Source: Polyangiales bacterium (GTDB lineage: Bacteria > Myxococcota_A > Polyangia > Polyangiales > Houyiibacteriaceae). From it: 38,222 nucleotides of DNA. A program made the translations under genes and the position numbers. The stretch spans positions 1 through 38,222 of the forward strand of contig JBFICQ010000003.1 in assembly GCA_041581895.1 (NCBI GenBank). The letters run 5' to 3'. The notes under the pieces were generated by a model that was not told the DNA's origin, ran no database searches, and worked only from the letters and a program-made list of their open reading frames with translations. Positions within the stretch are counted from its first letter, which is position 1; each line of letters begins with the position of its first letter. Shown here piece after piece: positions 33,513 to 38,222 of this stretch.

Positions 33513-34840
33513 TGCCCGCTCGAGGGACATCGTTATCGGTGCCGGAGCTCATCGTCCGAAAGCGAGATGGGGGCAATCTCGCCAAAGCGGAAATCGCAGC
33601 GCTGGTCTCCGGCTTCATGGACGGCTCGGTGACCGACTACCAAATGAGCGCGTTTGCCATGGCTGTCTACTTCGAGGGTATGAGCTTCGAAGAAACCGTC
33701 GCCCTCACGCTCGCCATGCGCGACAGCGGCAAAGTGCTCAATCTGGCCAGCATCACTGCTCCCAAGGTCGACAAGCACTCGACAGGAGGGGTTGGTGACA
33801 AGGTCAGCATCTGCCTAGCGCCCATCATGGCGGCGTGCGGCGTGGCGGTTCCGATGATGAGCGGACGGGGGCTCGGGCACACCGGCGGCACGCTCGACAA
33901 GCTCGAAGCGATTCCCGGCTTCCGCGTCGACCTGTCGGTTGAGGAGCTTCGAGCGCAAGTGCGTACGGTTGGTTGCGCCCTCATCGGGCAAACCGCCGAC
34001 CTCGCTCCAGCGGATCGTCGTCTCTACGCCCTTCGCGACGTGACGGGTACCGTGGAGTCGATCCCACTGATCACGGCAAGCATCCTCTCGAAGAAACTGG
34101 CCGAGGGCATTGATGGGTTGGTGCTCGACGTCAAGGTAGGGCGGGGCGCGTTCATGAAGAGCCTGGCCTCGGCCAAGGAGCTCGCCCGTAGTTTGGTGCG
34201 CGTCGGTCGGCTGGCTGGCAAGCAGGTTTCCGCGTTGCTGACCGACATGAGCAGCCCGATCGGCTACACGATCGGCAACTCGGTGGAGACGATCGAAGCG
34301 CTCGAGGTCTTGCACGATCGCGGTCCCGAGGACCTGCGTGAGATCACATTCGCCCTCGGGGCAGAGATGCTTCGAATCGCTGGCTTCGCGAAGTCGAAAG
34401 CCGAGGCGTTGCGCCGTCAACAAGCGGTCGTGAGAGATGGTACGGCGCTTCGCAAGATGCAGGCGATTGTCGGAGCTCAGGGCGGGGATATCCGCGTTGT
34501 CGACGAGCCCGATCGCCTCCCCGTGGCGCGCCATCAGTCGACCGTGACTGCGCGGAAGGCCGGCTACATTCGAGAGATCGATGCACTCGAGCTCGGCTAT
34601 TCATCGATGGGATTGGGCGCGGGCCGTAGCCGGGCCGAGGACCGGGTGGACCCCGGGGCTGGCGTTCGGCTTCACCTGCGTCGTGGCGACCGGGTCGAGG
34701 TTGGCCAAGTGGTTGCAACGCTTTATTCGTCCGACAGGTCGTGTCTCGATGACGGAACCATCCGCGTCGGGAACTGCTTCGAGATCGGCAAGAAGAAGCC
34801 GGAGCCACGCGACCGAATCATTGGAGCGATTCGACGCTGA
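33509..34840 (+). CDS. deoA: Thymidine/pyrimidine-nucleoside phosphorylase
   Basis: RKRDG, DYQMSAFAMA, VDKHSTGGVGDK, SGRGLGHTGGTLDKLEAIPG, LYALRDVTGTV, SILSKKLAEG and LDVKVGRGAFMK. Start overlaps the rnr stop. Confidence 0.93.
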   Translation: MMPARGTSLSVPELIVRKRDGGNLAKAEIAALVSGFMDGSVTDYQMSAFAMAVYFEGMSFEETVALTLAMRDSGKVLNLASITAPKVDKHSTGGVGDKVSICLAPIMAACGVAVPMMSGRGLGHTGGTLDKLEAIPGFRVDLSVEELRAQVRTVGCALIGQTADLAPADRRLYALRDVTGTVESIPLITASILSKKLAEGIDGLVLDVKVGRGAFMKSLASAKELARSLVRVGRLAGKQVSALLTDMSSPIGYTIGNSVETIEALEVLHDRGPEDLREITFALGAEMLRIAGFAKSKAEALRRQQAVVRDGTALRKMQAIVGAQGGDIRVVDEPDRLPVARHQSTVTARKAGYIREIDALELGYSSMGLGAGRSRAEDRVDPGAGVRLHLRRGDRVEVGQVVATLYSSDRSCLDDGTIRVGNCFEIGKKKPEPRDRIIGAIRR

Positions 34841-36200
34841 GGACACATCGGCTCGGATCGGGCTCCATGATGTTCCTACGAATGGATCTGCTTGCTCGGT
34901 CGTCGAGAAGCTCCGTCGTGGGGAAGCGTGCACTCGATGCGTAGCGCGCGCCGAGCTCGACGAAGAAGTTCGAGCCACTCACCTCGTCGAGAACGGCGAG
35001 GACATCCTCGGCGTCGACGAGCGTCGGGAGACTGGACAATCGGGGTTGCGCGAGGTCGAGGGCGCGCAGAAGCGTCATCTGGCCAGCACTTTCGCGTCGG
35101 AGCCGAAGATCCGCTTCCAACGCGAAGGCTGTACCAGCCCAGTAGACTCGGTAGTACGCCCCGGTTCGGTGCATATCGCGGCTCTCACTGGTCAAAACTC
35201 GGCCCGTGCCCGACCGGCGACCGCGTTCGAGGCCCTTGCGAATGAGATCCCACGAGACCGCCGCGCTTTGAAGGCCGCATCGCGCGCGCAAGATCTCCTG
35301 GAGATATGTGGCGATGCCCTCCGTGAGCCACCGGTCCGTACGGCGAAGTCGTGGCAGCCAGAGATGAGAGAGCTCGTGAATTACGACCCAGTCGGCTTCG
35401 AGATCTCGAACCTGCGCGGCGCTCGAGGCGATCAGCAAAACCGATGGGCCCCCGGCGCGACGAACCATCCCGAACGCAACCGGTCGATTCATCCCATCCA
35501 CGGGTACGACGACGAAGTGCAACCGTTCTACCGGAAAGCTGCTGCCAACCGACGCCACCGCACCGATGCCGCCGACCAGCCACTGGCGGGTGACTTCGCC
35601 CGCAGGCTTTGGGCCAAGACGTGCGACTGAAACAGGGATATCGGCGACTGAGAAACGCTCCTCGAAAAAAAAGCCGAAAACGTTGTAGCCATGTTGGTGA
35701 AATGCGTCCCTGTCGGGATAGTAGACGCTGCCTTGACGAGCCCAGGGAAGGGAAGCACGCGCGCCCGAGGGCAACGCGATCGAGACGGAAGCCTCGAGGT
35801 TCGATGGAAACGGCTCAGGGCGCCATAGCCATTCTGCTTGGGATACGACGACCGCGCGCGAATCGCGAGAGCGAAACACTTCGTCTACGAAACGGGTCTC
35901 ATACCAAACGCAAGCCGCGCCCATCGCAGCGGACAACTCGATCCGGCTTGCAAGGGAGTCGAGCGCACCGTGCTCGGACCACACCCGACTCAAACCGCGA
36001 GCCGCCTCGGTGTCGATGGGAGAGAGATGGCTCGGCGCGAATCCTTCGAAGCACACGTGGACTCTCGCGCCGTCGAAGTTGTCAAAGATTGTAACAAAGT
36101 ACCCGACGCGAGGAGCGCTCTCGAGGGCGGGAGAGACCGAAGCAGCATGGGCGCATCCGACCGCTGCGGCGAGCACCAGGAATTTCCAGAGCTTGGGCAT
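34818..36200 (-). CDS. Putative gluzincin (M1/M61/MA-like) zinc metallopeptidase lipoprotein
   Basis: Lipobox AAVG-C; HEXXH motif VIHELSHLW followed by the third ligand in WLTEGIATY; downstream YYRVYWAG Tyr motif. Confidence 0.75.
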   Translation of the reverse strand: MPKLWKFLVLAAAVGCAHAASVSPALESAPRVGYFVTIFDNFDGARVHVCFEGFAPSHLSPIDTEAARGLSRVWSEHGALDSLASRIELSAAMGAACVWYETRFVDEVFRSRDSRAVVVSQAEWLWRPEPFPSNLEASVSIALPSGARASLPWARQGSVYYPDRDAFHQHGYNVFGFFFEERFSVADIPVSVARLGPKPAGEVTRQWLVGGIGAVASVGSSFPVERLHFVVVPVDGMNRPVAFGMVRRAGGPSVLLIASSAAQVRDLEADWVVIHELSHLWLPRLRRTDRWLTEGIATYLQEILRARCGLQSAAVSWDLIRKGLERGRRSGTGRVLTSESRDMHRTGAYYRVYWAGTAFALEADLRLRRESAGQMTLLRALDLAQPRLSSLPTLVDAEDVLAVLDEVSGSNFFVELGARYASSARFPTTELLDDRASRSIRRNIMEPDPSRCVLSVESLQ

Positions 36201-36460
36201 GACGTAACTGTCTGGAATCTATGGGGTATTATTTGAGGATGGCCAGGGGTAATCGTGGGGCCCCGAAGGCAACCGTCGACTGAGACCACCGCACCCGTGA
36301 AGATCGTCAATCACGCTTTTGGTTTGCGACGCGCCGGTCGTTTGGCTAGCGTTGCGCTATTGAGAAGCGGGGGTGCGGGATTGGTCCCTATCGCCGCATT
36401 GCATCGCGGGCGACAGACAGTCCCGAGTGATGCGCTTTAGATGAAAGAGGGTAGAGAACT

Positions 36461-36691
36461 ATGAATTCAGCACTCAAGCACACGATCATCGCAATGGCGA
36501 CGGCGGCGCTGAGCATGACCGCAGCATGCAAGTCGGACGACGGTCCGGACGCAGCTGAGGCTACAGCCGGTGCCGAGGCGGCAGCGGCCGAGGCAGAGGG
36601 CGCTGCAGAAGGCGCTGAAGAAGCGGCGGGCGAAGCCGTAGAAGCGGCATCTGAGGCCTCGTGCGGCGAAGGCAGCTGCGGCGCCAAGTAA
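36461..36691 (+). CDS. Putative MNIO RiPP precursor peptide (HvfA/EGKCG-like) with lipoprotein-type signal
   Basis: 76 aa after a purine-rich SD region (GAAAGAGG). Signal MNSALKHTIIAMATAALSMTAA-C23, acidic Ala/Glu linker, C-terminal EASCG-EGSCG-AK. Directly upstream of a DUF692 gene. Confidence 0.82.
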   Translation: MNSALKHTIIAMATAALSMTAACKSDDGPDAAEATAGAEAAAAEAEGAAEGAEEAAGEAVEAASEASCGEGSCGAK

Positions 36692-36702
36692 CGAAAGCTC
36701 AC

Positions 36703-36765
36703 GCCGCTCTTCGAGCGGCATAATATGGAAAGCCGCGGCGGCGATTGTCGTCGCGGCTTTGTTTT
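36703..36765 (+). terminator. Tandem stem-loops / intrinsic terminator between precursor and MNIO gene
   Basis: GCCGCTC-TTC-GAGCGGC (36703-36719), then a 14-bp stem AAAGCCGCGGCGGC-GATT-GTCGTCGCGGCTTT (36729-36760, two G.U pairs) followed by GTTTT. Confidence 0.7.
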
Positions 36766-36769
36766 CGAA

Positions 36770-37612
36770 GTGACCGGAAAAGTACACGGAATCGGGCTCG
36801 GGCTTCGCTACGACTTGGCGACGGAGCTTCTCGACCGACGTCCCCAAAGCGTTTCGTGGGTCGAGGTTCATCCCGAAAATTACGTCAACCGGGGTGGACG
36901 CTACGGGGAAATTCTCGATGTCGCGAGAAGAGATTGGCCGGTGGTCACCCACGGCCTTAGCACCTGCCTTGGCGCCCTCGAGCCGGTGGACGAGGCTTAC
37001 CTCGCCGACCTGCGCCTTTTCTTGAAGAACCTCGAGGTGCCGTGGCATAGCGAGCACCTCTGCATCGGGTCAGCGAACGCCCGCTTCTTTCACGATCTCT
37101 TGCCGCTGCCTTTCACCGATGAGGCCGTGGCTATGTCGGCGCAGCGCCTCTGCGAAATGCGAGACGCCCTCGATTTGCCGATCGCCCTCGAGAACGTCAG
37201 CTACTATGCACCCCAGGCTGACGATGGCTTGGATGAAGCCGACTTCGTGGTCGAGGTCCTCGAGCGAGCCGATGCGAAGCTCTTGCTGGACGTGAACAAC
37301 ATCTACGTGAATGCACGGAACTTCGGCTTCGATGCAGAGGCCTACATCGACCGAATGCCACGCGAGCGCGTGGTCCAGATCCACGTGGCTGGCCACTTGG
37401 TGAGGGACGATGGGCTTCGCATCGACACCCACGGCGAGGCGGTGCCAAACGATGTGTACCACTTGCTCGAGTACGCGCTACGAAAAGTAGGACCGGTGCC
37501 AGTGCTGCTCGAGCGCGACAACAACATCCCGGCTCTAGAGGAGCTCTTGGCTGAAATCGACGATCTTTGGGCGATCTACGAGCGCGCAACGGGTGAGCCG
37601 CGTGCTGGGTGA
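36770..37612 (+). CDS. DUF692 family multinuclear non-heme iron-dependent oxidative enzyme (MNIO; MbnB/TglH/ChrH/HvfB family)
   Basis: GIGLGLR, VEVHPENY, THGLS, SEHL, DLLPLPF, LENVSYY, LLLDVNNIYVN, QIHVAGH, IDTHG and LLERD. Start is GTG 36770 or ATG 36725. Confidence 0.93.
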   Translation: MTGKVHGIGLGLRYDLATELLDRRPQSVSWVEVHPENYVNRGGRYGEILDVARRDWPVVTHGLSTCLGALEPVDEAYLADLRLFLKNLEVPWHSEHLCIGSANARFFHDLLPLPFTDEAVAMSAQRLCEMRDALDLPIALENVSYYAPQADDGLDEADFVVEVLERADAKLLLDVNNIYVNARNFGFDAEAYIDRMPRERVVQIHVAGHLVRDDGLRIDTHGEAVPNDVYHLLEYALRKVGPVPVLLERDNNIPALEELLAEIDDLWAIYERATGEPRAG

Positions 37613-38222
37613 TCGAGCCAGCGCCATGCAGCGTGTCTGCTTCGACCTCGAGCCAAGTGAAGCCGATCTAGTTGCCTTGGGTTCGAGGGAACGCTGGCTT
37701 GTCTACAGAGATCTCGTGCGCAGCAAGCTGATCAACGTGGTCGGCGTTGCGTTGAGCCGCACAAAGCGGGTGGCGAGTGACGAAGCTTTCCAAGGCATAG
37801 TCGACCAATGGATGGCCACAGGGGGCCCCAAGACGCGGTACTTGCGTCACGTGCCACGCGAGCTGTTTGAATTTGCGATCCCGCGCTGGCAGGACCAGAA
37901 GCCTGCATGGCTCGCGGACTTGGCCCGTTACGAGATCACGGGATGGGACGTTCGGTACGCACCGCCGAATCGCGTCCCAACGTGTGACTTCGCGTTCGAT
38001 CGCGTCCCGGTGCTCAACCCGGCCTTACGCGTGTTGCGACTGTCATATCCCGTGCATCACACCCCTACCCCCGCCTCCGGATACGAAGAAGAGCCCAGTA
38101 TCCTCTGCATCTATCGCAACGAGCACCACAAGCCGGCTTCGTGGAAGCTAAACCCCCTTGCCGCCAGTCTGATCGAAGCATGGGCAAGGGCAGACAAGCC
38201 CGTCACCGAGACCGTTCACGAG
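37602..38222 (+). CDS. MNIO partner protein, HvfC/BufC/DUF2063-like (3'-truncated by window end)
   Basis: Absent from the ORF track because it has no stop in the window. Hand translation from GTG 37602 (or ATG 37626) is open to the end: ...RERWLVYRDLVRSKLINVV...FQGIVDQWM...WLADLARYE...PVLNPALRVLRLSYPVH...LCIYRN...WKLNPLAASLIE. Overlaps the DUF692 stop. Confidence 0.82.
   Translation, partial: MLGDRASAMQRVCFDLEPSEADLVALGSRERWLVYRDLVRSKLINVVGVALSRTKRVASDEAFQGIVDQWMATGGPKTRYLRHVPRELFEFAIPRWQDQKPAWLADLARYEITGWDVRYAPPNRVPTCDFAFDRVPVLNPALRVLRLSYPVHHTPTPASGYEEEPSILCIYRNEHHKPASWKLNPLAASLIEAWARADKPVTETVHE

Follow-up and report, generated by a model that had tools for sequence, protein, structure and literature searches.

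Two enzymes encoded beside a small Cys-rich peptide, HvfB and HvfC, are reported to remove 4 Da per Cys from the repeated sequence AEGKCGEGKCG, and approximately one Cu(I) is bound per modified Cys pair (PMC11252979). The modification of these oxazolins, originally assigned as an oxazolone/thioamide, has been reassigned to a 5-thiooxazole (bioRxiv 10.64898/2026.06.05.730506; 10.64898/2026.07.17.739211; PMC13097082). Among the peptides of this group, made by ribosomes and modified after translation (RiPPs), both oxazolin-type and 'CxxxxC' precursors with Sec signals have been described, together with lipoprotein signals predicted in ~16% of the Buf2 bufferins (PMC12452194). In this line, a 2026 PNAS paper named RiPP-lipoprotein hybrids 'DAG-RiPPs', described signals for signal peptidase II (SPII) in subsets of bufferins and oxazolins and in the uncharacterised CxxxxC 'Cluster X', and reported a triacylated, -12 Da NedA of Neisseria dentiae expressed with NedBC in Escherichia coli (PMC13056109). 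It was not until 2025-26 that lipid-anchored, enzyme-modified, metal-binding peptides were recognised, the examples being one from Neisseria and one from Bacteroidota. Here we describe a candidate of this kind at the 3' end of contig G000:C3, which was analysed whole (38,222 bp, hereafter the window) and belongs to a 3.5 Mb genome in 369 contigs: a gene for a 76-aa precursor followed by genes for an enzyme of the MNIO (DUF692) family, oxidative enzymes that depend on multinuclear non-heme iron, and for a DUF2063-type partner. With a probability of about 0.62, we read them as a three-gene hvfABC-type RiPP operon making a lipid-anchored, thiooxazole-bearing peptide that chelates Cu(I).

The precursor, its enzymes and their conservation

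An earlier note on this DNA, written from the letters alone, had proposed three co-oriented genes for a peptide, a DUF692 enzyme and an overlapping DUF2063-like partner, and all three were recovered at the same positions, in a single orientation (Table 1). The DUF692 enzyme is confirmed by PF05114, which covers residues 22-283 with 308.7 bits (E 3.9e-92; gathering score 25), and by an alignment with the solved DUF692 protein PDB 3bww (E 2.9e-51) through the motifs HPEN, THGLS, HSEHL, ALEN, DVNNIYVNA, IHVAGH, DTHGE and LLERD, whose conserved His/Asp/Glu include the residues that we take to be the iron ligands. Translation of the MNIO would probably start at the GTG rather than at the ATG of the longest open reading frame (ORF), because the first 15 codons of the latter coincide with a conserved terminator hairpin, and similarity to the MNIOs of relatives often begins only at residue 15-19. 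The partner, whose first 20 nt are shared with the end of the MNIO gene, likewise bears out the earlier claim, with PF09836 (DUF2063, 32.5 bits) and PF22106 (NGO1945_C, 30.6 bits) both above their Pfam cut-offs; full-length partners in relatives have 232-243 aa. The best NCBIfam models for the three proteins are those of HvfB, HvfC and the HvfA domain. For the MNIO, the HvfB equivalog NF003818 scores highest (297.8 bits, cut-off 360), followed by the BufB equivalog NF050167 (273.6 bits, cut-off 310), with other MNIO models far lower (ApyH 100, ChrH 72 and MbnB 36 bits), whereas for the partner NF050145 (HvfC, cut-off 142) gives 85.2 bits with the truncated 210 aa and 55.7 bits with an overlapping C-terminal piece on contig C65 of the same genome. 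The family assignment anticipated by the earlier note consequently stood at the level of Pfam and of best-scoring models, and fell short of the curated cut-offs for HvfA, HvfB and BufB and, with a truncated protein, for HvfC.

The precursor reads MNSALKHTIIAMATAALSMTAAC-KSDDGP...(Ala/Glu-rich)...EASCGEGSCGAK. Its layout comprises Lys6, a hydrophobic core, the lipobox M-T-A-A-C ending in Cys23, an acidic Ala/Glu-rich stretch and a C-terminal S-C68-G-E-G-S-C73-G-A-K, and the predicted mature peptide has 54 residues with an isoelectric point of ~4.05, 14 Asp plus Glu and 2 Lys. A single C-x4-C pair is present, with Ser preceding each Cys where HvfA has Lys; this one E-A-S-C-G-E-G-S-C-G falls short of the definition of an oxazolin (Buf_EGKCG). 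Relatives from the same genus carry 1-3 C-G/S-x-G-x-C pairs with Ser or Asn, and rarely Lys, before the Cys. In an alignment of 31 precursors, two of them Sandaracinaceae-like, the invariant columns are Cys23, Cys68, Gly69, Gly71 and Cys73, while the linker between lipobox and core varies in both length and sequence. A precursor frame lies upstream of the MNIO gene in 30/30 genus loci read, intact in all except L012, where a frameshift splits it, and L015, where the contig end cuts it. Of 41 genus genomes, 39 contain a precursor homologue; the MNIO was found in 34 out of 36, and in 55 of 61 when all relatives and the window's own genome are counted. Judged from this conservation, the small ORF is a real gene, since a frame kept upstream of the MNIO in 30/30 loci, with invariant Cys while the middle drifts, goes beyond chance. 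The genome that carries L012 (G009:C1) is 10% contaminated and contains another copy of the MNIO. In one genome the precursor genes are in tandem upstream of the MNIO (L157, G055:C37), the second starting a few bases past the stop of the first, and in another (L128, G015:C6) the 36 nt that separate a promoter-like motif from the MNIO downstream contain no precursor, the precursor match of that genome being on another contig.

As for known peptide families, the HvfA domain model NF050137 (KCGExKCG_twice) gives the window peptide 15.2 bits, under its cut-off of 19.5, while 19 of the 31 aligned precursors match NF050137 and 15 match NF050188 (E<=0.01). On these profile matches, the link to the HvfA family holds for the clade and not for the single-motif window member alone. 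No DUF2282 (bufferin) match was obtained at the locus in the Pfam search. Single-motif precursors of this kind, lying below the NCBIfam HvfA cut-off, are likely left as hypothetical proteins in annotations.

A lipobox rule is passed by all 31 aligned precursors, with the Cys at position 23-24, and an SPII lipobox precursor adjoining a modifying enzyme is the combination that characterises DAG-RiPPs. The own genome encodes the host lipoprotein pathway, with LspA (89.5 bits) and Lnt (227.2 bits) above their cut-offs and three Lgt-like matches (85-106 bits, below the cut-off of 118.9), one of which adjoins lspA. Regarding the final location, 28 of 29 genus rows have Lys as the residue at +2, and a Lys at +2 was reported for 8 of 12 inner-membrane lipoproteins of Myxococcus xanthus (PMC3222651). 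Since the +2 Lys is conserved in the genus and matches that pattern, retention in the inner membrane may reasonably, if weakly, be suggested.

The window ends inside the partner gene, which resumes on G000:C65 (13737-14179, minus strand). The two contig ends match over 326 nt with 99% identity (window 37897-38222 and C65 13854-14179). Within this overlap the partner protein differs at three amino acids, which suggests strain heterogeneity, and this may have caused the assembly break. Beyond the partner, C65 carries a convergent acyl-CoA dehydrogenase gene and then rpoC and rpoB. Two genus relatives with longer contigs keep the same order as the window plus C65: thymidine phosphorylase, a 460-aa HExxH lipoprotein on the opposite strand, precursor, MNIO, partner (240-243 aa), acyl-CoA dehydrogenase and rpoC. 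The operon has three genes, because the same flanking order is found on C65 and in the two relatives. With the contig extended in this way, as the earlier note had advised, no DoxX, sigma, anti-sigma or transporter gene was found in the operon, and no copper gene within or adjoining it, in the window, C65 and the two relatives.

Throughout one order, whose metagenome-assembled genomes are labelled Myxococcota or Polyangia, anchoring seems to be the norm. In 15 further genomes from other families of that order, orthologous MNIO loci adjoin a lipobox-Cys peptide in 14 cases by eye (11 by strict regular expression). These peptides have differing signal sequences, and they keep the Cys at +1 (MVGC, SAC, YGC, GAGC) and a terminal SCGxGSCG; at the remaining locus, L158, no adjoining precursor peptide was found within 4 kb. 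The earlier note had named homologous MNIO loci without a comparable Cys peptide as one of the observations that would undo its proposal, and the opposite was seen in 30/30 genus and 14/15 other-family loci. Distant MNIO paralogues (39-44% identity) occur in larger genomes of the order (L162, L163, L164 and L166, from G057, G037, G048 and G052) and adjoin other lipobox peptides with DAGCAGCP-type, MDAGCAA-type or CKGCCKECC-type Cys repeats. Lipoprotein-type MNIO substrates seem general in this order on sequence grounds, because the paralogous MNIOs also adjoin lipobox peptides. Looking at public databases, 72 of the 80 best loci have a motif-bearing frame by the MNIO; the lipobox rule is passed by ten of the 72, all in the Myxococcota group, and by eye L050 would seem to be an eleventh. 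The other 62, mainly from Pseudomonadota and Bacteroidota, fail the rule and have an ordinary signal peptide, and most of them contain an NPFxxxELxxGYM segment absent from the Myxococcota peptides. In a tree of 76 MNIOs (quick IQ-TREE search, SH-aLRT supports), the window enzyme groups with L039 (98) in a genus clade of seven rows (support 100), joined by Sandaracinaceae and Polyangia rows in a group of ten, all of the lipobox type (93).

The nearest public loci are metagenome-assembled genomes (MAGs) labelled Myxococcales, Myxococcota or 'delta proteobacterium' (MNIO identity 72-83%), followed by Sandaracinaceae and Polyangia MAGs (53-58%), and the earlier description of the DNA as myxobacterial is right at the level of these labels. 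DNA runs containing the stretch come from marine metagenomes (two studies) and one soil metagenome. The host is an uncultured marine Myxococcota (Polyangia-like) bacterium.

A second precursor of the same type was found in the own genome, on contig C102 (L008:333-578, minus strand), with no MNIO adjacent to it. This orphan has 81 aa and five core Cys with His/Lys spacers, shares the signal peptide of the window precursor and passes NF050137 (21.9 bits, cut-off 19.5). It would probably be matured by the same enzymes. The orphan locus is kept in at least four relatives (G014, G035, G022 and G018), each with its own short leader.

Table 1. Coordinates of the features described at the 3' end of the window
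Feature	Position	Strand	Basis or remark
Promoter-like motif of the ECF type, degenerate, GCAAC-N16-CGCA	36269-36293	+	GAAAC-N16-CGTA in relatives
Conserved 5' leader, ~170 nt, six helices	36293-36460	+	Alignment, RNAalifold
Leader hairpins GGGAUUGGUCCC and GCAUC...GAUGC; Shine-Dalgarno AGAGGG			
Precursor, 76 aa	36461-36691	+	ORF, alignment of relatives, lipobox rule
Predicted signal peptide, residues 1-22; lipobox Cys23 codon	36527-36529 (Cys23)		
Core S-C68-G-E-G-S-C73-G, Cys codons	36662-36664 and 36677-36679		
First intercistronic hairpin, GCCGCUC-UUC-GAGCGGC, 7 bp	36703-36719	+	Fold
Intrinsic-terminator-like hairpin, 13-14 bp GC-rich stem, 4-6 nt loop, tail UUUGUUUUC	36729-36766	+	Fold, terminator scan
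MNIO (DUF692), 280 aa from GTG 36770 (probable start)	36770-37612	+	Longest ORF from ATG 36725, 295 aa
HvfC-like partner, 210 aa, open at contig end	37593-38222	+	DUF2063 and NGO1945_C, the latter of the RiPP recognition element (RRE) type

Promoter-like motif, leader RNA and terminator

The 84-nt intercistronic stretch between the precursor and the MNIO folds with -44.3 kcal/mol (z -5.65), a value that none of 200 shuffles equalled. A script requiring a stem plus a T-tract was passed by 31 of 35 genus loci, the stems showing compensatory changes, and like hairpins follow the precursor in 12 of the 15 other-family loci (by eye). RiPP operons usually obtain more peptide than enzyme by means of a leaky terminator behind the precursor gene.

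Upstream of the precursor, 33 of 35 genus loci (31 of 33 when identical sequences are counted once) carry the sequence GAAAC-N16-CGTA at 193-203 nt from the ATG, the exceptions being the window and L037. Promoters of extracytoplasmic function (ECF) sigma factors usually have the look 'AAC ... CGT', and we take the motif to be of this type. Four Sandaracinaceae-like loci have GTAAC-N16-CGTA ~120 nt upstream. The orphan precursor, too, has the motif 76 nt upstream, both in the own genome and in four relatives; on C102 intact copies lie at about 620-650 and 2431-2455. In the own genome and in L169, at a distance of 2-3 kb from the orphan, the motif is also found just upstream of a gene for a cytochrome c + DM13 lipoprotein, and in L172 it occurs near the orphan precursor with no ORF resolved there. 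A search for GAAAC-N16-CGTA yielded 17 matches in the own genome against ~16 expected, and 2-4 in each of five relatives against 1-6 for a reversed control, with no common theme among the downstream genes except the precursor loci; with counts at chance level and no common theme, no genome-wide regulon can therefore be defined. The rest of contig C102 contains no ECF sigma or anti-sigma gene. A sigma-70 promoter scan of 36150-36900 found none, and an apparent TTGCGA-N17-TAGCGT promoter was dropped because that stretch pairs inside the leader.

Between the motif and the start codon lies the leader, for which RNAalifold gave a consensus fold of -52.6 kcal/mol. Its six named helices have 79.3% of their cells paired, compared with 35-49% in slid controls, and a covariation score of 0.164 against 0.05-0.10, values reached by 0-1 of 500 shuffles; the structure derives from the same sequences on which it was tested, which inflates this contrast. 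Fifteen pairs change on both sides, and G-U changes are seen too. An Rfam scan of 36150-36760 (E<=10) returned chance-level matches only. Leader motifs were not found elsewhere in the own genome, and a riboswitch reused there was ruled out for want of a second copy. The leader might act as a sensor, as a stabiliser or as a site where a protein binds. Together with the terminator, it offers concrete regulatory parts that were not previously described for this RiPP class in the literature searched.

Proposed pathway and alternatives

The observations made here concern the genes and how they are conserved, the matches to known families and the RNA features; from these we infer chemistry, lipidation, localisation, metal and regulation as follows. 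The 76-aa precursor would be bound in the cytoplasm by the MNIO and its DUF2063/RRE partner, and there a four-electron oxidation would turn each of Cys68 and Cys73 into a 5-thiooxazole (-4 Da per residue). The modified peptide would then be exported via Sec, after which Lgt would place a diacylglycerol on Cys23, LspA would cut off the 22-residue signal peptide and Lnt would N-acylate the new N-terminus. The product would be a very acidic lipopeptide of 54 residues carrying one thiooxazole pair on a disordered periplasmic linker of ~45 residues, and it would chelate one Cu(I), a single site being predicted because there is a single C-x4-C pair. Expression would be set by the ECF-type promoter, the long structured leader and the leaky terminator after the precursor gene, the last of these keeping peptide mRNA far above enzyme mRNA.

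Several observations weigh against this pathway. The MNIO, the truncated partner and the precursor of the window all score under the curated NCBIfam cut-offs, one pair of thiooxazoles is the least that a metal site would need, and the motif has Ser or Asn where characterised substrates have Lys. The lipobox was judged by a PROSITE-like rule, the +2 Lys rule was drawn from a distant myxobacterium, and the +2 residue is Gly in other families of the order. On the regulatory side, the window copy of the promoter-like motif is altered at two positions, the operon lacks the DoxX, sigma and anti-sigma genes already mentioned, NrsF was not found in the own genome, and no RNA sequencing run in the run listing contains the locus. 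The HvfA-like system with a lipid-anchored product that the earlier note proposed is in this way upheld, as far as sequence goes, by the Hvf models being best, by the lipobox in 31/31 precursors and by an encoded lipoprotein pathway, and is qualified by the sub-threshold scores and the Ser/Asn in place of Lys.

Lipidation is the step that can be dropped while the same chemistry is kept. The signal would then be cut by signal peptidase I (SPI) or remain uncleaved, yielding a soluble periplasmic peptide in which Cys23 serves as a metal ligand or disulphide partner. The T-A-A before Cys23 would suit SPI as well, with the small -3/-1 residues that this enzyme generally prefers, and HvfA itself is reported as an SPI substrate (PMC11252979). 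Nevertheless, the Cys at +1 is invariant (31/31) and kept across families with differing signals, some of which have a poor -3 residue for SPI, and the lipobox rule finds such a Cys in none of the 62 remaining motif-bearing public loci, mainly of Pseudomonadota and Bacteroidota, which makes a soluble product rather improbable. The chemistry itself could differ instead, as MNIOs are described as chemically diverse (PMC12452194), and on S-C-G-x-G-S-C-G the enzyme might make an oxazolone/thioamide, a ChrH-type macrocycle or hydantoin, or a Cys-Cys cross-link, with no thiooxazole metallophore as the result. The window's MNIO scores under the HvfB and BufB equivalog cut-offs, and in the quick tree the Myxococcota MNIOs fall outside a 60-row clade of Pseudomonadota and Bacteroidota (support 98), in which the precursors belong to the classical EGKCGEGKCG type, a separation that counts among the points against the proposed pathway and therefore leaves room for a different chemistry. 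This we hold to be unlikely, given that the HvfB (298 bits) and BufB (274 bits) models stand far above those of ApyH, ChrH and MbnB, that the Gly-rich C-x4-C spacing is the same, that the partner is a true DUF2063/RRE protein, and that characterised HvfB and BufB enzymes are both now reported as makers of 5-thiooxazole.

A modified lipopeptide acting outside copper handling, through another soft metal (Zn, Cd, Hg or Ag) or in a membrane redox or electron-transfer role, is the alternative to which we would grant a modest, minority chance. The absence of a copper gene in and beside the operon speaks for it, as do the promoter-like motif that precedes the gene for the cytochrome c + DM13 lipoprotein in the vicinity of the orphan (own genome and L169) and the bufferin fusions with MerC, which point to other metals (PMC12452194); on the opposite side, all the characterised thiooxazole peptides of this MNIO group are reported to bind copper or to protect against it. 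That the small ORF is just an ordinary acidic lipoprotein, not a substrate of the adjoining enzymes, seems very improbable: the window peptide taken alone is under the HvfA domain cut-off and its middle part is of low complexity, but the adjacency to the MNIO in 30/30 genus and 14/15 other-family loci, and a terminal motif that is invariant while the rest drifts, argue otherwise.

Beyond the proposed operon for a lipid-anchored Cu(I) chelator, a bolder and quite speculative extension, which we consider unlikely to hold in full, would see, throughout the order, a family of acidic, Lys-free thiooxazole lipopeptides that are tethered to the membrane, have evolved separately and possess a control circuit of their own. 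In it, an ECF-type (G/T)AAC-N16-CGTA promoter could be shared with the orphan precursor and the cytochrome c + DM13 lipoprotein gene, the leader could be a new metal- or stress-responsive cis-regulatory RNA, and the terminator could be leaky and set the peptide-to-enzyme ratio.

In the neighbourhood of the operon, the divergently transcribed 460-aa protein (window 34818-36200, minus strand) has a lipoprotein-like N-terminus (AVGC) and a HELSH motif, and its position is kept in genus relatives. Searches of Pfam and NCBIfam assigned it no family.

Comparison with known systems

The earlier note had put forward a membrane-anchored metal-binding lipo-RiPP as something new, and in this respect it has been overtaken, the concept being already published and shown (NedA in PMC13056109; Buf2 signals in PMC12452194). 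On the other hand, the statement that no myxobacterial example had been characterised agrees with the literature searched, where we found none, even if the mined-sequence supplements of PMC13056109 and PMC12452194 may list such precursors. The interpretation appears to be right in kind and not novel as a concept, and is partly supported by the sequence comparisons. What is new here is a Lys-free, very acidic Myxococcota clade, an operon with no DoxX, a second precursor that is an orphan, a conserved terminator separating the precursor gene from that of the enzyme, an ECF-like promoter and a structured leader of ~170 nt. Having only three genes, none of them for DoxX, and a single predicted metal site held by an acidic tether, the system is a simple one, and it raises the questions of what copper buffering gains from tethering, of whether Ser/Asn instead of Lys before the Cys makes a difference to the enzyme, and of how precursor and enzyme levels are balanced.

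Bufferins (BufABC, including Buf1/DUF2282 and Buf2) resemble the window system in having a closely related MNIO (BufB model, 273.6 bits) and Sec signals, and they are described as thiooxazole copper chelators, the kind of product proposed here. Their precursors are described as folded domains with 4 or 6 conserved Cys, in contrast with a window peptide without a DUF2282 match, and some bufferin biosynthetic gene clusters (BGCs) are reported to encode an ECF sigma factor/NrsF (PMC12452194), of which NrsF has no counterpart in the genome of the window. DoxX is frequent, though not universal, in oxazolin and bufferin BGCs, while here the operon is flanked by unrelated genes and the five DoxX genes of the own genome lie elsewhere. 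The 'CxxxxC' family (PMC12452194) and 'Cluster X' (PMC13056109), both uncharacterised and matched here by their verbal description only, share a signal or lipoprotein peptide, the C-x4-C spacing and an MNIO with DUF2063. A Lactamase_B_2 gene is reported in 54% of CxxxxC BGCs (PMC12452194), and the window operon is without one.

HvfABC(X) of nontypeable Haemophilus influenzae has the same order of precursor, MNIO and partner and the same C-G-E-G-x-C-G spacing (PMC11252979). As described there, HvfA has no leader and carries instead a Sec-dependent signal at its N-terminus, which is another likeness; the best models for all three window proteins are those of Hvf. The differences are that HvfA is described with an SPI signal, a Lys-rich AEGKCGEGKCG repeated three times and DoxX in its operon, whereas the window precursor has an SPII lipobox and no Lys in the motif, and its operon no DoxX. 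Moreover, the window proteins score under the equivalog cut-offs, and the NPFxxxELxxGYM of most proteobacterial precursors is absent. NedA of N. dentiae, by its published description, differs in its three EGKCG motifs and its origin in Pseudomonadota, against a single C-x4-C pair, Ser/Asn for Lys and an acidic character in the peptides described here, whose MNIO sits in the separate Myxococcota clade. In its architecture the NedA/NedBC system, with an SPII signal, a Cys-Gly-rich precursor and an adjoining MNIO and DUF2063-type partner, is like the window operon, and its product in E. coli, triacylated and lighter by 4 Da per motif (PMC13056109), is of the kind that we would expect from it.

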